Made by a program: the position numbers and the translations under genes
Assembly: GCA_963744515.1 (NCBI GenBank)
Contig: CAVUTN010000008.1
Coordinates: 22,172 to 86,171, forward strand
Reading direction: 5' to 3'
Length of the DNA stretch: 64,000 bases
DNA from: an uncultured Actinomycetes bacterium
GTDB taxonomy: Bacteria; Actinomycetota; UBA4738; HRBIN12
In this document: piece after piece, positions 3,575-50,919 of the stretch
How positions within the stretch are numbered: position 1 is the first letter of the stretch
Layout: every line of letters begins with the position of its first letter
Notes under the pieces: generated by a model
The model's database searches: none
Told to the model about the DNA's origin: nothing
The model's input: only the letters and a program-made list of their open reading frames with translations

Positions 3575-5235
3575 ATGGCGTCGAGACCGTTCGACTTCGT
3601 GATCGTGGGGGGCGGGTCCGCCGGCTGTGCGCTCGCCAACCGCCTGTCGGCCGACCCGTCGAACCGGGTCCTCGTGCTCGAGGCCGGGCGACCCGACTAC
3701 CCGTGGGACGTCTACATCCACATGCCGGCGGCGCTCACGTTCCCGATCGGCAACCGCTTCTACGACTGGAAGTACGAGTCCGAACCCGAGCCGCACATGA
3801 ACGGCCGGCGGATCTACCACGCGCGCGGGAAGGTCCTCGGCGGCTCGAGCAGCATCAACGGGATGATCTTCCAGCGCGGCAACCCGCTCGACTACGAGCG
3901 CTGGAGCGCCGACCCCGGGATGCAGACGTGGGACTACGCGCACTGCCTCCCCTACTTCCGCCGGATGGAGCACTGCCTCGCGGCCGAACCGGGCGACGAG
4001 TTCCGAGGTGCGCCGGTCCCTTGGTGCTCGAACGCGGCCCGGCCACCAACCCGCTGTTCGGGGCGTTCTTCGAGGCGGCGCGTCAGGCGGGGTTCGAGCT
4101 GACCGACGACGTGAACGGCTACCGGCAGGAGGGGTTCGCGGCGTTCGACCGGAACATCCATCGCGGGCGGCGGCTCTCGGCGGCGCGCGCCTACCTGCAC
4201 CCGGTGCGGTCACGCCCGAACCTCGAGATCCGAACGAGGGCGTTCGTGAACCGGATCGTGTTCGAGGGCTCGCGCGCCGTCGGGGTCGAGATCGCACGCG
4301 GCCGCGGCGCGCCGGAACGGATCCACGCCGGCGAGGTCATCGTGTCCGGCGGCGCGATCAACTCGCCGCAGACGCTGCAGCTGTCGGGGGTCGGCCCGGC
4401 CGACGAGCTCCGGGCGCTCGGGATCGACGTCGTGCACGACCTGCCCGGCGTCGGCGAGAACCTCCAGGACCACCTCGAGGTCTACGTGCAGCACGCGTGC
4501 ACGCAGCCGGTCTCGATGGCGCCCTACCTGAAGTGGCGGTACCGTCCGTGGATCGGTTTCCGGTGGCTGTTCTTCCGCTCGGGCCCCGGCGCGACGAACC
4601 ACTTCGAGGGCGGCGGGTTCGCCCGGAGCAACGACGACGTCCGGTACCCGAACCTGATGTTCCACTTCCTGCCGATCGCCGTGCGCTACGACGGTTCGGC
4701 GCCGGCGAGCGACCACGGCTACCAGGTGCACATCGGGCCGATGTACTCGGACGCGCGGGGCTCGGTGAAGGTCACGAGCCCCGACCCCCGGGTCCATCCC
4801 GCGCTCCGCTTCAACTACCTCTCGACGGAGCAGGATCGGCGGGAGTGGGTCGAGGCGATCCGCACGGCGCGGCGGATCCTCGGTCAGCCCGCGATGGCGC
4901 CGTTCGACGGGGGCGAGCTCTCGCCGGGCGCGAGCGTCGAGACCGACGAGGAGATCCTCGCGTGGGTCGCCCGCGACGCCGAGACCGCCCTGCACCCCTC
5001 GTGCACGTGCAAGATGGGGACGGACGAGATGTCGGTCGTCGACCCCGCCACGATGCGCGTCCACGGCCTGGACGGTCTCCGCGGTCGTCGATGCCTCGGT
5101 CTTCCCCTACGTCACGAACGGCAACATCTACGCGCCGGTGATGATGGTCGCCGAGAAGGCGGCGGACCTGATCCTCGGCGCCACGCCGCTGCAACCCGAG
5201 CCGATCGAGTTCTTCCGCCGCGAGCCGAGGCCTGA
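3575..5235 (+). CDS. betA: Choline dehydrogenase (GMC oxidoreductase), frameshifts near 4010 and 5085
   Basis: [69 protein letters not shown]; adjacent to betaine ABC transporter. Confidence 0.92.
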
Positions 5236-42053: not shown

Positions 42054-43083
<1,030 letters not shown>

Positions 43084-43101
43084 GCCGAAGCCCAGCCGCG
43101 C

Positions 43102-43424
43102 CTAGCCTGCCGCGCCTTGCCGCGGGCGAACCATCCCTTCACCGTGTCGCCCGCGAAGAACCACCCGACCCCGAACGCGATGAAGCCGAACAGCGCGAAC
43201 AGCACGATCGCGAACCCGCGCGTCACCTCGAGGAACCCGACCGTGACGGGCGTCCCGGGCGGGGCCTCGCTGTCGCCGATGTTCGCGATCTCGGTGGCGA
43301 TCCCCCACACGCACACGACGGCGAGGAGCAGGAAGGCGACCCCCAGCACGAACGAGATCCCTTCGACCCAGTCGTGCGCGGCGGTCGCCTCGCTCAGCCG
43401 GCGGCGGAAGGTGCGGTAGGTCAT
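43102..43424 (-). CDS. Two-TM hypothetical membrane protein (end approximate)
   Basis: Hydrophobic segments ISFVLGVAFLLLAVVCVWGI and FAIVLFALFGFIAFGVGWFF; starts 5 nt after the Crp-family stop. Confidence 0.65.
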
Positions 43425-43429
43425 CGCGC

Positions 43430-44136
43430 TCACAGCCCCGCCAGCTTGGCGAGCCCGTTGATCTTCAGCAGGACGAACCGCGGCCGTCGCGCTCGACGAA
43501 GCCGCGGCGCTGGAAGTCGGACAGGATCCGCGTCACGTTCTCTCGGCTGCCCCCGCACAGGCTCGCCAGGTCCGCATGGGTCACGACCGAGGGCACGAGG
43601 AGCGCCGTCCGGCGGGAGCTCGTCGAGCGAGGGTGAGACGAGCTGGAGGAGACGCTTGGCGACCCGGCCCTTCAGATCGAGATAGAGGAGGTCCTCGACG
43701 AAGGCCTCATGTGATTGCACCTGGCGAGCCAGCGCTCGCAGGAGCGCCCTGGAGGCCGACGCCTGCCCGTTGACGAACTCCAGGAACGTCTCCGAGGGCA
43801 CGACCCAGACCGAGGATTCCTCTCGAGACGAGGGCGGACGCGGTTCTCGGCATGTCCCCCAGCACGCCGAGTTCGCCGAAGAACTGTGGGGAGTCCAGGG
43901 TTGCATGGAGCTGTCGTTGCCCGTTCGCAGAGGCCGAGCTGATCTCCACCCGCCCATCTGATCAGGAAGAACACCTCCGGCGAGGGATCTCCCTGATGGA
44001 ACAGGTAGGTGCCGCGCCGGTAGCTCCGGGTGTTTCCCCGCTCCGCCAGTGCGCCGATCACCTCGGGCGGGGTGCCCGCGAACAGGGGCGTGCGCGCCAT
44101 CATCGCCTCGAGCTCGGACGCCACCGCCCTCCCCAT
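43430..44136 (-). CDS. Crp/Fnr family transcriptional regulator (several frameshifts)
   Basis: YLFHQGDPS, FFGELGVLGDMPRTASA cNMP pocket, DLKGRVAKRLL, THADLASLCGGSRENVTRIL HTH. Confidence 0.9.
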
Positions 44137-44182
44137 GGCGCGTAGCCTACCCATGTCACCTCACGGGAGCGACCCGCAGACA

Positions 44183-44216
44183 GAACGAGACCCGGCCCGA
44201 GGGCCGGGTCTCGTTC
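44183..44216 (-). terminator. Perfect 15-bp stem-loop after the Lys-rich peptide gene
   Basis: GAACGAGACCCGGCC-CGAG-GGCCGGGTCTCGTTC. Confidence 0.75.
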
Positions 44217-44221
44217 GAAGG

Positions 44222-44361
44222 TCAGTGGTGACGCCTACTCTGCCCTTCTTCTTGGACTTCTTGAGCCGCTTCAGACTCTTCTTCTCCACGCGGGCTGCCG
44301 TGTCGGTGCTCGACGTCTTCGTCGACGATGCGGCCTTCGGAGTGATCTTCTTGTCCGCCAC
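44222..44361 (-). CDS. Small Lys/Ser/Thr-rich peptide (about 46 aa if one G is restored at ~44243)
   Basis: Strong RBS GGAGGTGA before GTG 44361; MADKKITPKAASSTKTSSTDTAARVEKKSLKRLKKSKKKG; a TGA at 44222 just before the hairpin becomes in frame with a 1-nt homopolymer correction. Confidence 0.65.
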
Positions 44362-44454
44362 CTGATTCACCTCCCCGATCCCCCAGGTCCCATCGGTTCG
44401 GGACATCGGATATTGCATGCCGTGCGCATCATCCTCTCAGGAGGCCGGGGGAAC

Positions 44455-44517
44455 TGTGCTGCGCGTCACGCGTTCTCCCGTGACCCCCGTCACCACATGA
44501 GAGTGACGCACGTCACA
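44455..44517. promoter_or_regulatory. Three tandem Crp-type boxes upstream of the peptide gene
   Basis: TGTGC-N6-TCACG (44455-44470), CGTGA-N6-TCACC (44479-44494), AGTGA-N6-TCACA (44502-44517). Confidence 0.7.
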
Positions 44518-44731
44518 TTTCCTGATCGAGCTCGGGGAGGGCGAGGGGGTCCGGTCGCGGGGAGCAGGCGCCACAGAACAGGGCGTCCTCGACGATGAGG
44601 GCCTGCGTGACGTCACGGGACCGGAAGAGCTCGAGAACGAACGGCAGCGTTTCCACGTGATCGGCGCAGATGCCCCGTCCGCAGAATCGGCAGCTTCCCA
44701 CCGCCGTCTTCCGGCAGTGCCAGCAATCCAT
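44513..44731 (-). CDS. Small Cys-rich zinc-finger protein (B-box-like)
   Basis: MDCWHC...CRFCGRGICADH...FCGAC; RBS AAGGA before ATG. Confidence 0.75.
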   Translation of the reverse strand: MDCWHCRKTAVGSCRFCGRGICADHVETLPFVLELFRSRDVTQALIVEDALFCGACSPRPDPLALPELDQEM

Positions 44732-44752
44732 ACACGGTTCCTTTCGCTCGGC

Positions 44753-46926
44753 TCAGTGCTGCGAGGTTCTGCCTACGGTGACCGCCTGTGCAAGCGAGCC
44801 ACGCCGGAAGGCACCCGCAACGACCTGATCGAATCCCTCTGCGTCGAGCCTGAAGACGCGCGTGGGGGTCCGGGCGATCACGGTCGCGGTCCTGGGCACG
44901 TCCGCGAGCAGTGCGACCTCGCCGAAGTGGCTTCCGGGTCCCAGGGTGTTGACGACCTGCCCGTCACGGATCACCTCGACCTGCCCGGTCCCGATCACGT
45001 AGAAGGCATCACCCGGTTGACCCTGCTCCACGAAGACCTCACCGGGGGCGACGTTCAGCCATCGTCCGTGGTCGAGGATCATGGCGATCTCGGTCGAGCC
45101 GAGTGAGGCGAACGGCGGAAGCCCGCGGAGCTCCGCGGCTTGCTGCAAGCGTCGGCTGGAATTCGGGAACGTGCACCATGTCCGACAGGAGCCGGTCGAA
45201 GGTGCTTTCGTCCACCTCGAACAGCTGCGCATCCGTGGTGGGGCGCACGGTCGCGGCCCGGGGGGCACCGTCGATCAACCCGAGCTCGCCGAACGTGTCG
45301 CCCGGCGCGAGGGTACGGATCACTCGCTCCTTCCCGGTTTCGAGATCCTCCTCGAGGACCTCCAGGCTCCCGGTGCGAACGATGAAGAAGGCATCCGGTC
45401 GATCCCCCTGCCGGAAGACCGGCTTGCCCGCAGGGTACCCCCTCAGGTTCACGCGGCCGGCGATATCCGAGAGCACGTCCTCGGGGAGGTCGTCGAACAT
45501 CGCCGACCGGTCGAGCAGCTCGGCGGCTTCCACACGCCACCGGGTCTGGAGCCGGAAGCGTACCTTGTCGAGGAGGCTCATCACCTTCTTCTTCGCCGCG
45601 CGCGCGAGCGCGATCAGCCCACGCAGGATCGGGCCCGCGATGAACAGTCCGAGCACGACGAGGAGCGCCTTGCCGATGACGCCCCCATCCCACAACTCCC
45701 GGATCAGTCCTCCGAAGATCGTTTCCCAGAAGAAGATCGACGTCCAGAGGCAGAACACCGTGAAGGCGATGCCGACGATCGCGTAGGCGGCCAGGCCGAC
45801 CTCCTGCTTCGTGATGCGCTCCCGTCCCCGGATCTTGCGCCATAGGTCGTAGCGGATGAACTGCAGCGAGCGTGGCCTCAGGTCCGGTACCTGGATCAGA
45901 TCCGCCAGGATGTAGTACCCGTCGAGCTCGAGGAGCGGTACCAGGTTCAGGAAGATCACGAAGTAGTTGATGACCGCCCACGTGAAGAGGAAGGGTGCGG
46001 CCGGCGACTCGGGGAACGCCCAGAGGTAGATCGAAGCGAAGGCCGACACGACGAGTTCCGCGAACGGGCCCGCGGCCGACTGCACGATCCGCTTGCCCCG
46101 GTCCAGCATGAGGGAGTCCGAAGCCTCGACGAAGAAGGCCGGGGACCCGAAGTAGATCATGAAGCCGGCACTCTTGATCTTCCGCCCCTGGTGAACGAGA
46201 ACGACCGCATGACCGAGCTCGTGCACGAACGTCAGGATGTAGTCCATGCCGAGCAGGATCAGCGTCTGGGCCGCGGGAGAGTCGCCCCCGAGATCGAAGC
46301 GATGGCTCTGCGTAGACGGCCACGAACGCCACGAGCCCCAGGACGGCAAGCACGAGCGCGGCGACCGCGACCGCCGGGATGAAGAAGAACCGCAGCCCAT
46401 GACGATAGAGCCAGGCGACGAGCTTGTGGGCTCCCGTCCAGTCGATCGAGAGCGTCTTGGCGAACTCTCGGGCCTTCGTCCTCGCCATCGTCGTGGGATG
46501 GGCCGCTCGCCGGACGATCTCCGTCGTGTCGACGTAATGCTCGGTCAGGAAGTTCCCGATCCGAAGCTGTCGGACCAGATCCACGACCCCGTCGAGCGCG
46601 AGATCGCCGGACTCCTGGAAGGACTCGACGACGATCTCCTTCACGGTCCGGGTCCCGTCCATGAGCGCGAGGAGCCTCGACGTCCTCGGGCCGGAGCTGG
46701 TAGTGCACGAGGTCCGTCGGGTTCGCGATCATGGCGTAGTCGTTGCCCCACCGGAGTTTGAACGCCTTCACCTCGATGTCGTCACGCAGGTGCGGGCGAT
46801 ACTCGGCCGGGTCCACCCGGTTCGCGAGGTCGGACCACAGTCCGCGGCCGTCGTGCTCGCGCGTGTCCCGATCGAGCTTCGCCGCGACGGTCGCGTAGAG
46901 CCTCCTCCGGAGCTGCGAAGGGTCAT
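44753..46926 (-). CDS. PqqD/RRE-like domain + M50 (site-2) metallopeptidase + two cNMP-binding domains (frameshifts near 46900, 46680, 46320, 45130)
   Basis: LLALMDGTRTVKEI (RRE-like), HELGH, AAGPF, NLVPLLELDG, GELGLIDGAPRAATV, GEVALLADVPRTATV. Confidence 0.82.
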
Positions 46927-47623
46927 GTGTCGGAGGCGCGACTCGCGCTCGGCCCGCAGGCGCTGATCGATCGTGCCGTAGAGCGAGAGCCGCGCTGGGG
47001 GCCGGCGCTTGGAAGCGAAGAGATTCCCGATCACGCCGCCGGCAAGGAGCGCGATCAGGATCGCCGCGATCACCGTCTCCCAGGTGATCCCGCCACTCTC
47101 GGGCGCTGCCAGCGACCGGGTGACCTCGGCCGACTCGCCGAAGATCGTCGACGACCCCGAGGACGAACCGAGCATCCTCCGGGATCGTCTTCACCACGTG
47201 CGCATCGACCTCGAAGGAGATGTTGGCCCCACCGGTGGTCACGATCACGTCGGCGCCGCTCACCCGCAGGTACGCGCTCGTCGCCACCGCGCCGGTGCCG
47301 ACGATGAGGTCCTGTTCGCCGACGATCAGCTTGTTGTCCTCGATGTCGAACCGCAGCTGATCGAGCTCCTGGTTCCCGGACATGATCGACGCCTCGAGGA
47401 GGTGGAGCGCCTGCCACCCACCGGGCATCGTCCCGTCGACACGGATCGTGAGCGTCGAGCCCGACGCGAGGGCACCCGACACCTGGCCGTTGACGCTCGG
47501 ACCGCTCGTCGGGCTCGGCGAGGTGGACTGCGCCGAGGCGGGACCCGCGGTCACGATCACCGCCACGAGGGCGGCGAGCAGCAACGACCCCTGCAACGCC
47601 GGTCGACGGATCACGGAGCGCAT
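46923..47623 (-). CDS. Exported protein with C-terminal membrane anchor (frameshift near 47140)
   Basis: Signal peptide ending GPASA, beta-rich core, TM VIAAILIALLAGGVIGNLFA followed by SKRR; ATGA overlap with the M50 gene. Confidence 0.7.
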
Positions 47624-47650
47624 CTTCGACCCGGGGGCGTCGGGACGCAA

Positions 47651-47689
47651 CGTGACGGAGGTCACCCCCCGTCCGTGCGCGACGTCACC
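47651..47689. promoter_or_regulatory. Two tandem Crp-type boxes in a divergent intergenic region
   Basis: CGTGA-N6-TCACC (47651-47666), CGTGC-N6-TCACC (47674-47689), 23 bp apart. Confidence 0.65.
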
Positions 47690-47758
47690 GCTCCTAGCAC
47701 GGACCCGGACGTAGGGTTCGCCGGAGGTTGAGCACCACATCGAGGAGGAGGTGCGGAG

Positions 47759-47929
47759 ATGCTGAGCGGAGAGATGGCCCGGTACCAGATCGGCGACCGC
47801 GTTCGCGAGGCCGAGGCCGACCGCCTTGCCCGGTCGACCCGCAGGAGCAGGGCCGCGGACTCGCGGGGCGTGGCCCGGCGCATCGGTCGTGCCGCCCTGG
47901 CGGCCGCCACCTGGCCCATCAAGCACTAG
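47759..47929 (+). CDS. 56-aa small protein missing from the ORF track
   Basis: RBS GAGGAGGAGG; MLSGEMARYQIGDRVREAEADRLARSTRRSRAADSRGVARRIGRAALAAATWPIKH*. Confidence 0.7.
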   Translation: MLSGEMARYQIGDRVREAEADRLARSTRRSRAADSRGVARRIGRAALAAATWPIKH

Positions 47930-48088
47930 CGTTCACGGCCCGGACATCCACGCGCCTCCGGGCCTTCATGGGCCCCCGATACGTTCCATCCGCCAAGAGA
48001 GAGCGGTTACGCCCCCTCTCGAGAGCGGGGGGTTCGGTCTCCGACCGGGCCCCCCGCGCCCCCCTCCCGCCAAGAAGCCGCGCAACGC

Positions 48089-50047
48089 TCAGGCGCCACC
48101 CGAGGAGAGGTTCTGGATCTCCAACGGCGGCAGGCGATCCGCCGGCTCGAACCCCAGGATCGTGCCGTAGAACGTGAGCTCGGCCGACAGTCCGCGCGAG
48201 ATGTTCTCCACCTTGCGGAACCCGTGCTGCTCGCCTTCGAACAGGAGGTAGGCGTATGGCAACCCCCGGTTCTCCAGGGCCTTGACGATGACCTCCGCCT
48301 GCGCGGGCGGGACCACCTCGTCCTCGTCGCCCTGCAGGATCAGCAGCGGGCTGGACAGGAGCTCGGCGTGCCGGACCGGCGAGCGTTCGGCCCACAGGTC
48401 GGCCGCCTCGGGCCACGGACCCACCAGGAGGTCGAGGTACTTGGACTCGAACTTGTGGGTGGTCTCGGCGAACGGCTCGAGATCCGAGACGCCGAAGTAG
48501 CTCGAGCCCGTCGCGAACGCGTCCCGGAACGTGAGCGCGCACAGCGTCGTCCATCCCCCCGCGCTCCCACCGGAGATCATCAGCCGCTCGGGGTCCGCGA
48601 GACCCCGCTCGACGAGGTGCTCGGCGGCCGCCACCGCGTCGTCGACGTCGGCCACGCCCCACCGGCCGTACAGGCTCTCGCGGAAGGCCCGGCCGTAGCC
48701 GGTGCTGCCGCGGTAGTTCACGTCGACACACGCGATCCCGCGGCTCGTGAAGAACTGCAGCTCGAGGTCCAGCTCCGGCCACACCTCGGACGTCGGTCCC
48801 CCGTGGACGTGCACGAGCAGCGGTGGGCGTTCGCCGTCGGGGGCGGTGGCGACCGCGTTCGTCGGCGGGTAGTAGTGCGCGAACGCGGTCTGGCCCTCGG
48901 TGGTCGGGAACTCGATCGGTTCGGGCACGGACAGGTACCCGGGGTCGAACCCCACAACGTCGTTCGCGCGCAGGACCTCGACCGCGCGCGTCGAGAAGTC
49001 GAGCGACACGACCTGCGTCGGCGTGGTCGGGCCGCCGGCGATGAACGCCAACCGCTGCCCCGAGACGCTGAGGGCCGCCTCGAAGGTCGCGTACGGCAGG
49101 TCCAGATCCAGGAGCTCTCGGGTCGTCGGATCGAGCAGCGCGAGGTGGTGGATGCCCCGCTCGCGGTACGCGCAGACGATCCTCCCGTCCGAGAGGAAGC
49201 CGTACGACGCGTAGCCGAACAGCCACATCGGCACGGCGAACTCGGCCGACATCGGGGCCAGGTTCGTAAGCTCACCGTCGGGCCCCTCCCGGTAGAGGTT
49301 CCACCAGTCGGTGCGATCGGAGACGAAGGTCAACGAGCCGTCGGGCGCCCAAGCCGGTTGGAAGATCGACTCGCGGTCACCGCCCGCGACCGCGCGCGAC
49401 GCGCCCGCCGATCCGTCGGACGCCACGTCGACCACGGCGAGCTCGCTGCCGTCCCAGGGCATCCGCGGGAAGTCCCAGGCGATGAACGCGACTCGCCCGC
49501 CCTCGGGCGACCAACGCGGGAACGCGTAGAAGTCCCGCCCGGATGCGAGCGTCGACGTCGACGATCCGTCGGCGGCGATCGCGACGAGCTCGTTGACGGG
49601 TGGCCCCTGGCCTTCGTGACGTTCGTGGACCGCCGCGATCCACCGGCCGTCGGCCGACACGTCCATATCGGCGTAGCGCAGACCGCGCGGGGTCGCGGGT
49701 TCGGGGGTGATCGCGGTGGGTTCGCCGCCGAGCTCCTGCCGGTACAACCGTTGGTCCTCGAGGTTGGCGAAGTAGGTGGTCGTCCCCCAGACGGCGTACG
49801 AACCGCCGCCGTACTCGTGCACCAGCGTCCGAACCGAGACCCCGGCCGGCGTCACGTCGAACGGCTCCCCGCCCGGATCCGAACGCACGACGACGGAACG
49901 ACCGCGTTCCTGGGGCCGGAGCTCGAGCCACGTGGTCGCGTCGCCGACCGCCCTCGTCTCGCTCAGCACCACCGAGGCCTCCGCGGCGCGATCGGCGGTG
50001 ATCGGCGACGGCCAGGACCCGTACGGGATGCGTTGCGCGTCGCTCAT
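48089..50047 (-). CDS. S9 family (prolyl oligopeptidase/acylaminoacyl) peptidase
   Basis: PYGSWPSPI, HGGPT, NYRGSTGYG, GGSAGG, QGDEDEVV, GEQHGF. Confidence 0.93.
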   Translation of the reverse strand: MSDAQRIPYGSWPSPITADRAAEASVVLSETRAVGDATTWLELRPQERGRSVVVRSDPGGEPFDVTPAGVSVRTLVHEYGGGSYAVWGTTTYFANLEDQRLYRQELGGEPTAITPEPATPRGLRYADMDVSADGRWIAAVHERHEGQGPPVNELVAIAADGSSTSTLASGRDFYAFPRWSPEGGRVAFIAWDFPRMPWDGSELAVVDVASDGSAGASRAVAGGDRESIFQPAWAPDGSLTFVSDRTDWWNLYREGPDGELTNLAPMSAEFAVPMWLFGYASYGFLSDGRIVCAYRERGIHHLALLDPTTRELLDLDLPYATFEAALSVSGQRLAFIAGGPTTPTQVVSLDFSTRAVEVLRANDVVGFDPGYLSVPEPIEFPTTEGQTAFAHYYPPTNAVATAPDGERPPLLVHVHGGPTSEVWPELDLELQFFTSRGIACVDVNYRGSTGYGRAFRESLYGRWGVADVDDAVAAAEHLVERGLADPERLMISGGSAGGWTTLCALTFRDAFATGSSYFGVSDLEPFAETTHKFESKYLDLLVGPWPEAADLWAERSPVRHAELLSSPLLILQGDEDEVVPPAQAEVIVKALENRGLPYAYLLFEGEQHGFRKVENISRGLSAELTFYGTILGFEPADRLPPLEIQNLSSGGA

Positions 50048-50919
50048 CCGCGCCAACGGCCGACGAGCACGCGCGTCACCTTGAACCCGCGATCCATCGT
50101 GCTCCGCACGTCCTCGAACCCGTTGCGTCGCAACACGGACGCGACCGCTCGCGCACGGTCGGGGCTGACCTCGATCAGCAGCCATCCGCCCGGTTTCAGC
50201 CACCGGGGACCCTCGGACGCCGACCGCCCGACGAGCCCGAGCCCGTCCAGGCTCTTGTCGGTGAGCGTGTGGACCGGCTCGAACCGCCGGATCTCCACGG
50301 GGAGCTCGTGGAGCTCGTCGCGAGCCACGTACGGCGGATGCAGGGTGATCACGTCCACGCGCCCGTGCAGGTCCTTCGGCAGACCGCCGAACAGGTCGCC
50401 CTTGGCGAACGTGGCGCGCAGCCGGAGCAGCTCCGCGTTCTCCCGCGCGACGCGGACGGCCGTGAGCGAGATGTCGGTGCCGAAGACCCGCACCCCCGGC
50501 ACCTCGTTCGCGATCGCCAGCGCGACGGTGCCGCCGCCGGTCGCGAGGTCGACCGCGACGGGGCGGCGTCGCCCGCGGAGCCTCCGCACCGCCTGCTCCG
50601 CGAGGTACTCGGTCGAATCGCGCGGCACGAACACCCCGGGCTTCGCCGCGATCTCCAACCCTCGGAAGACGGCGTGGCCCGTGATGAGCTGGACCGGTTC
50701 GCCGGACGCTCGGCGGGCGATCATCCGATCGAAGCGCCGGCGGACGTTCGCTGGGACCTCCGCGTTCGGAGCGACGCGGTCGACACCGAGCGCGTAGCCG
50801 AGCAGCTCGTCGGCCTCGATCTCCTCGCGATCGCGTTGCCAGTGATCGATCGCCGTGGACGCCTTGAGCGTCTCGACGGCATCGGTGAGGACCTCCTTCG
50901 CCTTCCTTGGCGCCTTCAT
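50044..50919 (-). CDS. HemK/PrmC-family N5-glutamine methyltransferase homolog (HPPY variant)
   Basis: RRASGEPVQLITG, VFVPRDSTE, VDLATGGG, TLHPPY, FEP, LKPGGWL. Confidence 0.85.
   Translation of the reverse strand: MKAPRKAKEVLTDAVETLKASTAIDHWQRDREEIEADELLGYALGVDRVAPNAEVPANVRRRFDRMIARRASGEPVQLITGHAVFRGLEIAAKPGVFVPRDSTEYLAEQAVRRLRGRRRPVAVDLATGGGTVALAIANEVPGVRVFGTDISLTAVRVARENAELLRLRATFAKGDLFGGLPKDLHGRVDVITLHPPYVARDELHELPVEIRRFEPVHTLTDKSLDGLGLVGRSASEGPRWLKPGGWLLIEVSPDRARAVASVLRRNGFEDVRSTMDRGFKVTRVLVGRWRG

Follow-up and report, generated by a model that had tools for sequence, protein, structure and literature searches.

A conserved protease, zinc-protein and basic-peptide cassette of uncultured Actinomycetota resembles a cAMP-switched peptide-cutting system

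Introduction

SpoIVFB removes the N-terminal pro-sequence from cytoplasmic pro-sigma-K, and its nucleotide-binding CBS domain is thought to link this cleavage to ATP. Membrane HExxH proteases also mature small ribosomal peptides in the YydH/LiaK epipeptide systems (NF058609). The NHLP/Nif11-type systems and TIGR03896 (‘cyc_nuc_ocin’; two cNMP-binding domains, bacteriocin-type transport) set a precedent for cNMP domains near RiPP-type precursors. In the daptide system, MpaP carries a RiPP-recognition element (RRE) fused N-terminally to an intramembrane S2P and removes the leader peptide (PMC10036551).

Here we describe a gene cassette from an uncultured soil actinobacterium that, judged from its sequence, looks like a system for cutting peptides under cAMP control; a literature search found no description of it. 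By sequence comparison, the closest known enzyme to its protease is the daptide leader peptidase MpaP, under the family cut-off. The two share an RRE at the N terminus, an M50 core behind it and a small precursor-like ORF nearby, but the cassette protease adds two C-terminal cNMP-binding domains, the daptide enzymes MpaB/C/D/M are not seen beside it, its peptide, a basic repeat protein, has neither the daptide leader nor a C-terminal Thr, and a zinc mini-protein and a Crp regulator (sometimes absent) are its fixed neighbours. SpoIVFB-type site-2 proteases (PDB 8VJL) share the six-TM M50 core and a cytoplasmic C-terminal nucleotide-sensing module; in the cassette, the sensors are cNMP rather than CBS domains, an RRE is added, substrate and regulators differ and there is no sporulation context. 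The likeness to YydH/LiaK is weak (49.7 bits versus a cut-off of 225); the cassette lacks a radical-SAM epimerase, and YydH/LiaK lack RRE and cNMP domains.

In an Anaerolineae homologue of the cassette (L109), three precursor-type proteins that match the NHLP clan (NF038399) above cut-off lie ahead of the same protease/zinc-protein pair. In contrast, the peptide studied here lies outside the NHLP clan, the cassette has no export ABC/HlyD genes and, unlike in TIGR03896 systems, its cNMP domains are part of the protease chain. Its regulator resembles CRP/GlxR-type cAMP receptor proteins in its cNMP domain, HTH_Crp_2, R-E-x3-R helix and TGTGA-N6-TCACA-like box consensus (tGTGACgnncGTCACa), but the putative sites form tandem arrays of 2–4 abutting boxes at a 23–24-bp pitch. 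Such arrays are, to our knowledge, atypical of described CRP promoters.

Results

Locus and reading frames

In the window, the 64,000-nucleotide stretch of DNA that we analysed, the cassette genes occupy the minus strand from 47623 to ~43102. Every element listed in a preliminary description of the locus was found on this strand: an exported anchored protein (Exp), the protease, the zinc protein, a Lys-rich ORF with its RBS and hairpin, the Crp regulator and a 2-TM protein. The window copy is readable only once ~10 indels are allowed for, with 1-nt indels breaking Exp (at least one), the protease (~4), Crp (4) and the neighbouring MoaA gene (1); the zinc-protein gene is intact. These frameshifts are assembly indels and not gene decay, because an 830-nt rpoB fragment of the same MAG is also frameshifted, twice. 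A decaying pseudogene cluster might be suspected from the ~10 frameshifts in 4.8 kb of cassette against none in the adjacent 2-kb S9 peptidase gene, but all lesions are 1-nt indels, a tblastn frame map found no in-frame stops in the reading pieces, and these pieces are 57–86% identical to intact orthologues at locus L013. The assembly (2.3 Mb, 19 contigs) has an estimated completeness of just 58%, and split matches likewise occur in other MAGs of the genus that consist of few contigs. We rate decay as the least probable of the alternatives considered here.

Protease, zinc mini-protein and peptide

The protease (44753..46926, minus strand, ~723 aa; 1-nt indels near 46895, 46685, 46311 and 45155) combines an RRE, a six-TM M50 core and two cNMP-binding domains. 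Pfam recovers Peptidase_M50 and both cNMP_binding domains. The catalytic motifs read HELGH and NxxPxxxLDG, with HExxH and NxxPxxxxDG invariant across the related proteases compared, and the phosphate-binding cassettes are canonical (FGELGL..PRAATV and FGEVALL..PRTATV). The NCBIfam daptide RRE-S2P peptidase model (daptide_HExxH) matches residues 56–442 at 168 bits (E = 2.8e-49), well below its equivalog cut-off of 300 bits. Matches to the YydH/LiaK and PqqD models are weaker, TIGR03896 matches the cNMP region weakly, and weak sequence similarity extends to 8vjl and 3b4r.

The N terminus had been called RRE-like from the letters alone, and structure prediction now supports an RRE fold. In the AlphaFold2 model, this domain has three strands and three helices (pLDDT 89–96, residues 31–120), and Foldseek matches it best to TbiB1, PqqD and lasso B1, all of them RREs that bind leaders (probability 1.00, target-normalised TM-score 0.61–0.66); a profile search likewise touches on PaaA and PqqD. 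For the RRE core, the median net charge is −6. Hydropathy shows six hydrophobic segments, which would place the RRE and the cNMP domains on one side of the membrane, shared with the signal-less peptide.

The zinc mini-protein (44513..44731, minus strand, 72 aa) is Cys-rich and ends in a conserved acidic tail, PRPDPLxLPELD. A 55-sequence alignment shows seven invariant cysteines (C3, C6, C14, C17, C22, C53 and C56), one near-invariant His (at least 90%) and a mean column identity of 71%. A structural search with its AlphaFold2 model (pLDDT 86) found nothing significant, the best resemblances being cross-brace zinc fingers.

The Lys-rich small ORF starts with GTG at 44361 on the minus strand, begins M-ADKKITPKAASSTKTSSTDTAARVEKKSLKRLKKSKKK... 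and has the RBS GGGGAGGTGA at ~44376–44367. As assembled (44161..44361), it runs through its terminator to 44161; because of a comparison with locus L101, we take the TAG at 44237–44235 as the probable true stop. The terminator-like hairpin (44185..44214, minus strand) has a perfect 15-bp GC-rich stem, a UCGG loop and a U-poor tail, with a fold energy of −46.4 kcal/mol (z = −5.0), and all relatives read have a hairpin of different sequence in the same position 3′ of the ORF.

We recovered the peptide at 82 of 97 loci, in 81 distinct sequences that share a conserved leader and hinge followed by a variable repeat tail; some loci carry tandem copies (two, or more than four). Beneath the fixed leader, codons vary at their wobble positions, and both the RBS and the ATG/GTG start are conserved. 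The peptides are extremely basic (median net charge +13), Cys-free and of low complexity. They have few hydrophobic residues and no hydrophobic stretch, contain TAR, ARN and TRQ repeats, appear poorly amphipathic by inspection and belong to no RiPP leader family in Pfam or NCBIfam.

Crp regulator and box arrays

The Crp-family regulator (43430..44136, minus strand; 1-nt indels near 43958, 43835, 43600 and 43475) has a cNMP-binding domain and HTH_Crp_2, with the recognition helix SRENVTR. Its intact orthologue (234 aa, L013 7641–8345) matches Pfam cNMP_binding, HTH_Crp_2 and Crp. A −10-like hexamer, TAGGCT, lies 7 nt before the ATG and suggests a leaderless Crp transcript. Contig C2 encodes another regulator of the CRP type, which also has an R-E-x3-R helix (SRESVNR).

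Five candidate Crp-type boxes in two intergenic regions had been reported for this locus, and their positions match ours (plus-strand starts 44456, 44480, 44503, 47652 and 47675). Three (44456..44516) lie between the zinc-protein and peptide genes at 23–24-bp spacing, the zinc-protein stop codon falling inside the first box of the array (the one with start 44503). The other two (47652..47688) read GTGACCTCCGTCAC (47652–47665) and GTGACGTCGCGCAC (47675–47688) on the minus strand and are 23 bp apart, with centres ~35 and ~58 nt ahead of the start codon of Exp; relatives possessing Exp have a homologous pair upstream of it, also with 23-bp spacing.

The cassette boxes are far beyond chance. Across the 2.3-Mb assembly we counted 74 GTGA-N6-TCAC sites (32 per Mb) and just 7 GTGAC-N4-GTCAC sites, 3 of which are in the operon, and the cassette operon is the assembly's sole instance of strict boxes paired within 120 nt. 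In 20 of 20 relatives, the peptide gene has an array of 2–4 boxes ahead of it, and at 71 of 76 non-redundant loci it has at least two, ~50-fold over background. The zinc-protein-to-peptide spacers contain 217 sites in 19.4 kb, against ~0.22 per kb elsewhere, and across non-redundant loci adjacent boxes are set 24 bp apart in 91 cases and 23 bp apart in 33, with a CRP-like consensus. Loci L098 and L085 had no boxes, and Crp, although frequent next to the cassette, is inverted or absent at L103/L104, L098 and L085; transcriptional coupling is therefore not universal among loci that keep the peptide.

Accessory genes, distribution and exchange

Exp (46923..47623, minus strand) has a signal peptide (MRSVIRRPALQGSLLLAALVAVIVTAGPASA), a beta-rich ectodomain, a C-terminal TM anchor (GNLFASKRR) and a short cytoplasmic tail. 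It is frameshifted near 47142, and its expected TGA stop (46925–46923) overlaps the protease ATG; at L013, where the orthologue is intact (245 aa, 4109–4846), the overlap is ATGA. Exp has no family match in Pfam or NCBIfam and is detectable at only about half of loci, weakly outside the genus. It shares its box-containing intergenic region with a divergent Arg-rich small ORF (47759..47929, plus strand, 56 aa, MLSGEMARYQIGDRV...), which has a 73%-identical counterpart in the same place in L013. By tblastn, this ORF lies upstream and divergent at many loci (38–71% identity), and it belongs to no Pfam or NCBIfam family. The 2-TM small membrane protein (43102..43433, minus strand), whose GTG start overlaps the Crp stop (GTGA), occurs among close relatives at 12 of 20 loci of one set, all of the window's genus, and 7 of 80 of the other.

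The protease adjoins the zinc protein at ~97 of ~100 related loci, spanning Microthrixaceae, Mycobacteriales, Acidimicrobiia and Anaerolineae. Of the genes listed in the preliminary description, the part that stays constant is the trio of protease, zinc protein and peptide; Crp is frequent, not constant, and the presence of Exp and of the 2-TM protein depends on the lineage. The synteny put forward there for testing around proteases with RRE, M50 and two cNMP domains is borne out across ~100 loci, where the CxxC protein, the basic ORF, the boxes and usually Crp are kept. No tailoring enzyme is among the genes tracked for conservation across related loci, in line with the earlier view that this is not a classical RiPP cluster.

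Phylogenies of the S9 peptidase and MoaA flanks place the window beside G018 (support 96/97 and 98/93), and the protease tree places it with G014/G009/G017 (100/100). Exchange breakpoints lie at ~47050 and ~43700, the left one within the region encoding the Exp TM segment and tail, a part that travels with the protease. The peptide leader type (TPKAA versus SPKAP) tracks the protease and not the flanks. By these comparisons, the cassette of this genome has been exchanged as a single unit relative to its flanks.

Discussion

We propose that the cassette, conserved and so far uncharacterised, of which this locus is one copy, works as outlined here, a reading to which we give a probability of about 0.5. 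At the centre of the system would be the six-TM site-2-type (M50) zinc protease, with the RRE at its cytoplasmic N terminus and the two cyclic-nucleotide-binding domains at its cytoplasmic C terminus. The small protein whose gene lies a short way downstream would dock on the acidic RRE through its basic, conserved N-terminal ‘leader’, MA[ED]KK[IV][TS]PKA, and would be cut by the protease, possibly close to the conserved AATRV[TS]K hinge. The cut would free or destroy its variable tail, which is made of short, very basic tandem repeats. Binding of cAMP or cGMP to the two sensor domains may gate cleavage, in parallel with the CBS domain of SpoIVFB. The neighbouring Crp is the presumed box-binding regulator, acting at the array of abutting TGTGA-N6-TCACA-type boxes before the peptide gene and at the box pair before Exp and the divergent small ORF, and the same messenger would thereby also set transcription of the precursor. 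The 72-aa zinc protein would be an obligate partner of the protease, as adaptor, chaperone or regulator. Our analysis establishes which genes and domains are present, that the catalytic and cNMP-binding motifs are intact, that the cassette is conserved and inherited together, and that the boxes are enriched and regularly spaced; we infer the steps above, and with them the sign of the regulation and the role of the released peptide. Weighing against the proposal are the low daptide score of the protease, a peptide with neither a hydrophobic stretch nor a match to a RiPP leader family, the loci where boxes are missing or Crp is inverted or missing, the second CRP-type regulator in the genome and the indels of the window copy.

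The basic repeat protein might instead be an independent product of the Crp regulon, such as a nucleoid-, RNA- or ribosome-binding protein signalled by cAMP, and merely the protease's neighbour, the true client being the zinc protein, through its acidic Pro-rich tail, or a protein encoded elsewhere. The peptide has a promoter region, RBS and terminator of its own, its very basic, Cys-free, low-complexity sequence is akin to DNA-binding protein tails, and no family ties it to RiPP leaders. The zinc protein, moreover, is the most conserved element and has a conserved C-terminal linear motif, and this tail may be what the RRE binds in place of the peptide. But an acidic RRE is ill-suited to an acidic tail, loci with an inverted or missing Crp (L103/L104, L098) still pair the peptide with the protease and zinc protein, and the peptide's leader type follows the protease clade through the recombination event. 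The peptide is also present in tandem copies at some loci, and Anaerolineae have recognised RiPP-type precursors in its place in the cassette. We consider such independence unlikely, although it is the alternative that we take most seriously.

Classical regulated intramembrane proteolysis, with Exp sensing the outside and serving as substrate or inhibitor of the M50 enzyme and the zinc protein as a released or controlled cytoplasmic factor, is a good deal more doubtful. It would suit the stop–start overlap of Exp with the protease and the movement of the Exp TM/tail region with it, and the SpoIVFB regulators BofA and SpoIVFA are membrane proteins. Yet Exp is missed at about half of loci and is type I (N-out), whereas S2P substrates are typically type II membrane proteins; no sigma factor is among the genes conserved across cassette loci, and the RRE domain and conserved peptide would be left unexplained. 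Slightly less probable again is an exported cationic antimicrobial or signalling peptide, unmodified, bacteriocin-like and matured by a leader peptidase. Homology of the protease to RiPP leader peptidases, a variable core behind a conserved leader, swapping between lineages like peptide-signal ‘types’ and the weak match to a cNMP-domain family tied to bacteriocin export (TIGR03896) all speak for it; against it, the cassette conserves no transporter or immunity gene, and the peptides are poor in hydrophobic residues and seemingly poorly amphipathic. The gene order of ORF, strong hairpin and Crp, together with an ORF full of runs of few codons, recalls attenuation, in which translation of a Lys/Arg-rich regulatory leader peptide controls a terminator before Crp. 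This is very improbable, as the amino-acid motifs at the N terminus and at the hinge persist from order to order, the ORF and hairpin are kept where Crp is convergent or absent, and Crp has its own −10-like element directly after the hairpin, positioned for a leaderless start.

Peptide cleavage by a putatively RRE-guided, cNMP-gated protease is our working interpretation. The arrangement is not confined to this genome: uncultured Actinomycetota carry it widely, and it extends to Chloroflexota. As the preliminary description had suggested, it is plausible that one cNMP signal would steer both the transcription of the peptide and its cleavage.

Organization and integrity of the cassette

The cassette lies on the minus strand of the window, which has a GC content of about 70% and forms part of contig C8 of a 2.3-Mb, 19-contig MAG with an estimated completeness of 58%. 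Its upstream end is a gene starting at 47623 for an exported anchored protein, Exp, which has a signal peptide ending in ASA before Q, a C-terminal transmembrane (TM) segment and a KRR tail. The expected Exp stop is overlapped by the ATG, at 46926, of a gene for a protease of about 723 aa, followed by a 72-aa Cys-rich zinc protein (44731–44513), a small Lys-rich ORF (GTG at 44361), a GC-rich 15-bp hairpin (44214–44185), a Crp-family regulator (about 44136–43430) and a 2-TM protein (down to about 43102) whose GTG start overlaps the Crp stop. The preliminary description had assigned the Lys-rich peptide its own ribosome-binding site (RBS) and terminator, and both are present: GGGGAGGTGA precedes the start codon, and the hairpin folds with −46.4 kcal/mol (z = −5.0).

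Several of these genes are interrupted as assembled. Using intact orthologues from the related genome G014 (locus L013) as tblastn queries, we found the reading frame to change at about 47142 in Exp, at about 46895, 46685, 46311 and 45155 in the protease, at about 43958, 43835, 43600 and 43475 in Crp and, once, at about 42430 in the neighbouring MoaA gene. All are single-base indels, and the reading pieces, free of in-frame stops, retain 57–86% identity to the G014 proteins. The sole rpoB fragment of the assembly (830 nt at a contig end; C2:56–889) is likewise split over three frames, and other few-contig MAGs of the genus also give split matches. On these grounds the operon is very probably intact in the organism and the frameshifts are assembly errors, and, given the indel pattern, retained identity, frameshifted rpoB and split matches in the genus, we reject a pseudogene reading of the locus. 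One-nucleotide indels throughout the assembly probably also explain the completeness estimate. The peptide ORF as assembled runs past its own terminator; judging by alignment with L101, the closest relative of that region, its true stop is likely the out-of-frame TAG at 44237–44235.

Two further genes flank the cassette. A conserved Arg-rich ORF of 56 aa (47759–47929, plus strand) diverges from Exp, shares a two-box intergenic region with it, is 38–73% identical across many loci and matches no known family. Upstream, in the same orientation as the cassette, an intact S9 (prolyl-oligopeptidase-type) peptidase (48089–50203, minus strand) keeps its synteny only in two families, that of the window among them, and probably belongs simply to the genomic backbone; set beside this neighbour, the peptide leader contains an invariant Pro. 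An Rfam scan of 42500–48500 gave no match at E values up to 1, so a known riboswitch or sRNA does not explain the intergenic conservation.

Domain architecture of the protease and the zinc protein

The intact protease orthologue (L013 4843–7014) carries Pfam Peptidase_M50 (PF02163) and two cNMP_binding domains (PF00027). Residues 56–442 align to NF041824, the daptide biosynthesis intramembrane metalloprotease (MpaP/DapP), and weaker NCBIfam matches include YydH/LiaK and, over residues 77–127, PqqD. Across 12 diverse homologues the HExxH and NxxPxxxxDG motifs are invariant (H226, E227, H230, N318, P321 and D326), and the phosphate-binding cassettes of both cNMP domains are canonical (PRAATV and PRTATV). 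The family has more than 1,400 metagenomic homologues, for which public annotations go no further than ‘cyclic nucleotide-binding domain-containing protein’ or ‘putative peptide zinc metalloprotease’.

An N-terminal domain resembling a RiPP recognition element (RRE) had been claimed for the protease, and structural modelling upholds it. By sequence the domain weakly matches PqqD and PaaA. AlphaFold2, run on the N-terminal 150 residues with a 33-sequence alignment, predicted three strands followed by three helices (pLDDT 89–96 over residues 31–120), and the best Foldseek matches in the PDB were TbiB1 (5V1U), PqqD (5SXY) and the lasso synthetase B1 (6JX3), all of them RREs that bind leader peptides (probability 1.00; TM-score normalized to target 0.61–0.66). 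In 33 homologues the core of the RRE is acidic, its net charge having a median of −6. Kyte-Doolittle hydropathy alone places six hydrophobic segments in the protease, from which the RRE and cNMP domains should lie on the same side of the membrane, presumably the cytoplasmic one.

The zinc protein has seven invariant Cys, one near-invariant His (at least 90% of sequences) and a conserved tail, PRPDPLxLPELD. Its AlphaFold2 model is confident (pLDDT 86), and a Foldseek search with it returned no significant match, the best being a cross-brace zinc finger (E = 1.1).

The basic peptide

A motif search recovered the peptide in 82 of 97 loci, a lower bound because at least one peptide, that of L022, was missed. 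The 81 distinct peptides lack Cys; their median length is 44 aa, with 35% K+R and a net charge of +13. They follow a three-part plan: a leader, MA[ED]KK[IV][TS]PKA; a linker of S/T/A/K with the hinge AATRV[TS]K; and a tail of basic tandem repeats with a period of 3–8, in units such as TAR, ARN, TRQ, VQK, TKRQ, KAVRAT and LKKTGRAG. The pattern is precursor-like, with leader and hinge conserved and the repeat tail variable; C-termini vary and are rarely Thr. Start codons alternate between ATG and GTG at one position behind a conserved GGAGG RBS, and wobble positions vary beneath the fixed leader, in an analysis that is partly circular given that the sequences were picked on the amino-acid motif. 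The actinobacterial peptide matches no Pfam or NCBIfam model, including those for NHLP-type leaders (NF038399/TIGR03793), and a search of 5.8 billion sequences with a 40-aa peptide gave one match, the query being too short and low in complexity for significance.

Copy number also varies, with two peptides in some loci and at least four in L085. In this Acidimicrobiia MAG, at least four tandem genes of two alternating types lie 100–1000 nt past the zinc-protein gene; their products have leader-like starts (MATKK[IV]DPK or MTDKIQPT) and a conserved non-repeat C-terminus, SDRAMKTGIV[SA]VEW. By sequence, they give the cassette an alternative ‘core’, and neither boxes nor Crp accompany it.

In the 5′ UTR, a short GC stem-loop lies directly upstream of the peptide RBS (about 44395–44375, minus strand). 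The stem reads GUCCC..GGGAC in the window and GCCCC..GGGGC or GCCC..GGGC in relatives, and seems to persist although both of its sides have changed in sequence; folded by itself, the window's 5′ UTR gives no significant structure (z = 0.01). A promoter and terminator scanner found no sigma-70-type promoter, its consensus being unsuited to an actinobacterium of 70% GC, and the peptide terminator escaped it owing to a U-poor tail.

Candidate Crp sites

The five GTGA/GTGC-N6-TCAC boxes that the preliminary description placed in two intergenic regions were found exactly there. Three lie between the zinc-protein and peptide genes (plus-strand starts 44503, 44480 and 44456, the first holding the zinc-protein stop codon) and two upstream of Exp (47652 and 47675), all at 23–24 bp spacing. 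They are not due to chance, as judged by their rarity across the assembly: GTGA-N6-TCAC occurs at 74 sites (32 per Mb), GTGAC-N4-GTCAC at only seven, three of which fall within this operon, and a strict pair within 120 nt occurs nowhere else. Among 76 non-redundant zinc-protein-to-peptide spacers, 71 contain at least two boxes and 56 at least three, amounting to 217 sites in 19.4 kb, compared with about 0.22 per kb elsewhere in the loci. Neighbouring boxes are predominantly 24 bp (91 cases) or 23 bp (33 cases) apart, multiples occur at 47 and 70 bp, and the consensus across loci is tGTGACgnncGTCACa.

The regulator described with an SRENVTR recognition helix, of the R-E-x3-R type, is likewise present once indels are allowed for, and its intact orthologue carries cNMP_binding (PF00027), HTH_Crp_2 (PF13545) and Crp (PF00325) domains. 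Enrichment and conservation make the boxes candidate sites of this Crp. A second CRP-type regulator of the same assembly (C2:311063–311686), 32% identical and with the recognition helix SRESVNR, could also recognize TGTGA-N6-TCACA boxes. Across loci the median distance from the last box centre to the start codon is 91 nt; in the window, a −10-like hexamer, GAGGAT, would set that box near −40, a position compatible with a class II-type activator site. Another −10-like hexamer directly follows the peptide terminator, 7 nt ahead of the Crp start codon (44136–44150; TAGGCT in the window, TACGCT in relatives), and suggests that Crp may be made from a leaderless mRNA.

The half-complete genome encodes many cNMP-binding proteins and at least 20 class III adenylate/guanylate cyclase domains, and the window contains none of these cyclases; cAMP signalling is thus clearly important in the host lineage.

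Conservation of a constant unit

All 41 sampled genomes of the same order, the window's own included, match the query, five with only a weak match (E values of 1e-5 to 1e-14); none of these five is among the fetched loci. A search for RRE-M50-cNMP proteins in synteny with Crp, the CxxC protein and a short basic ORF had been proposed, and the order is kept in the 20 loci fetched from this one order, with protease, zinc protein, box array, small basic ORF, hairpin and Crp. A pattern scan of 185,579 species genomes added 80 loci, nearly all from uncultured soil Actinomycetota MAGs, with a few from Microthrixaceae, Mycobacteriales, Acidimicrobiia, Anaerolineae and Chloroflexus. Wherever no contig end interrupts a locus, the protease gene is followed by that of the zinc protein in essentially all cases.

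Other components are less constant. In the Mycobacteriales loci L103 and L104, Crp is inverted, two boxes are kept and the peptide tail has 9 to 10 TRQ-type units, and L098 and L085 retain peptides with no Crp nearby and no boxes. Exp occurs in about half of the loci. The 2-TM protein is encoded in 12 of the 20 fetched loci, every one of these 12 from the window's genus, and in 7 of the 80 from the genome scan. What stays constant is therefore the unit of protease, zinc protein and peptide, to which Crp and its candidate boxes are a frequent addition.

The best evidence on the role of the small ORF, albeit indirect, comes from the Anaerolineae locus L109. There, three tandem proteins upstream of the homologous protease and zinc protein (L109 1210–4108) score above the cut-off for NF038399, ‘Os1348 family NHLP clan protein’ (68–83 bits versus 40), so that recognized RiPP-type leader-bearing proteins occupy the slot of the basic peptide. 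By analogy, the small basic ORF may be the client of the protease. This locus also has an M16 (PqqF-like) peptidase directly upstream of the protease and zinc protein, and its protease, at 1141 aa, has a large insert between the M50 core and the cNMP domains.

Exchange of the cassette as a unit

New relative to the preliminary description is the finding that the cassette was exchanged as one unit and forms a phylogenetic mosaic with its flanks. In sliding-window comparisons of nucleotide identity, the flanks (50150–47150 and 43550–41750) are 85–98% identical to the related genome G018 and its group and 65–84% to the G014 group, whereas the segment from about 47050 to about 43700 is 70–80% identical to the G014 group and 55–69% to the G018 group. 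Trees agree: the window falls beside G018 for MoaA (98/93 support) and the S9 peptidase (96/97), and with G014, G009 and G017 for the protease (100/100). Proteases of the G018 group, a same-genus ‘type B’, fall together with proteases from another family (98/97). The exchanged block starts in the TM segment and tail of Exp, takes in the protease, zinc protein, boxes and peptide, and extends into the sensor half of Crp; the type of peptide leader (TPKAA versus SPKAP) tracks the protease clade. These genes are thus inherited as one unit, which fits interacting parts.

Discussion

The cassette is real, conserved and undescribed; like the preliminary description, which knew of no account of the arrangement, our full-text literature searches found no relevant description of it or of a cyclic-nucleotide-controlled peptide protease. 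To our knowledge, cyclic-nucleotide control of a peptide-processing or intramembrane protease has not been described so far.

Its protease resembles known enzymes without belonging to their groups. With the daptide peptidase MpaP/DapP it shares an N-terminal PqqD-like winged-helix RRE and an M50 core with HExxH and NxxPxxxxDG, but its score of 168.2 bits falls under the 300-bit equivalog cut-off, no MpaB/C/D/M-type enzymes or Thr-ending precursors occur among the identified neighbours (Exp, zinc protein, basic peptide, Crp, MoaA and S9 peptidase), and its precursor is different; we therefore do not count it as a daptide equivalog. SpoIVFB cleaves the pro-sequence from cytoplasmic pro-sigma-K. 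The six hydrophobic segments may correspond to that group's six-TM core with both termini in the cytoplasm, and weak sequence matches to the SpoIVFB-type structures 8VJL and 3B4R were found, but the C terminus comprises two PF00027 domains with no CBS match, and the protease is thus not a SpoIVFB-type enzyme. Nor is the locus a classical RiPP cluster: the peptide has the conserved leader and variable core of one, but, as the preliminary description had noted for the operon, there is no tailoring enzyme among the identified genes of the cassette and its surroundings that were tracked across 100 loci.

Two further readings were rejected. The boxes were not taken for RNA hairpins, since their half-sites stay fixed (GTGA/TCAC) over a variable spacer, a pattern that points to a protein-binding site. 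Nor were the ORF and hairpin taken for an attenuator leader of Crp, since some loci keep both without a downstream Crp. Within the protease model, the conserved tail of the zinc protein is a possible alternative ligand for the RRE, to be weighed against the peptide leader, whose type follows the protease clade and whose slot is filled in L109 by leader-bearing proteins.

The best-supported reading is that the protease is an RRE-guided, S2P-type leader peptidase like MpaP, which would act on the adjacent leader-bearing basic peptide. Its two cNMP domains would take the role of SpoIVFB's CBS domain, and Crp would tie transcription of the precursor to the same messenger. The comparisons establish domain identity, motifs, synteny, box statistics and co-inheritance; docking, cleavage, gating, the sign of regulation and the role of the peptide are inferences of the model. 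On this reading the protease would resemble the daptide peptidase and SpoIVFB in how it works, while both its sensor module and its kind of client are new.

More tentatively, with a probability of roughly 0.3, RRE-M50-2x cNMP proteases and their obligate zinc mini-protein could be a widespread, undescribed second-messenger output device, in which a single small leader-tagged protein is controlled by cAMP or cGMP at two levels: its transcription via Crp, and its cleavage via the sensors of the protease. Leader recognition of the RiPP type would then have been recruited to intracellular signalling instead of natural-product synthesis, and the actinobacterial product might be a hyper-basic repeat peptide acting on a polyanion (nucleoid, RNA or polyphosphate). 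On this view, the cassette swap in this genome would be explained by co-evolution of the protease, the peptide and the sensor domain of Crp as exchangeable specificity ‘types’.

The hypothesis is directly testable with four small genes and two ligands. If the model is true, proteolysis would join the known bacterial outputs of cAMP, a large family annotated only as cyclic nucleotide-binding domain-containing protein would gain a function, and RiPP recognition elements would be in use outside natural-product tailoring.
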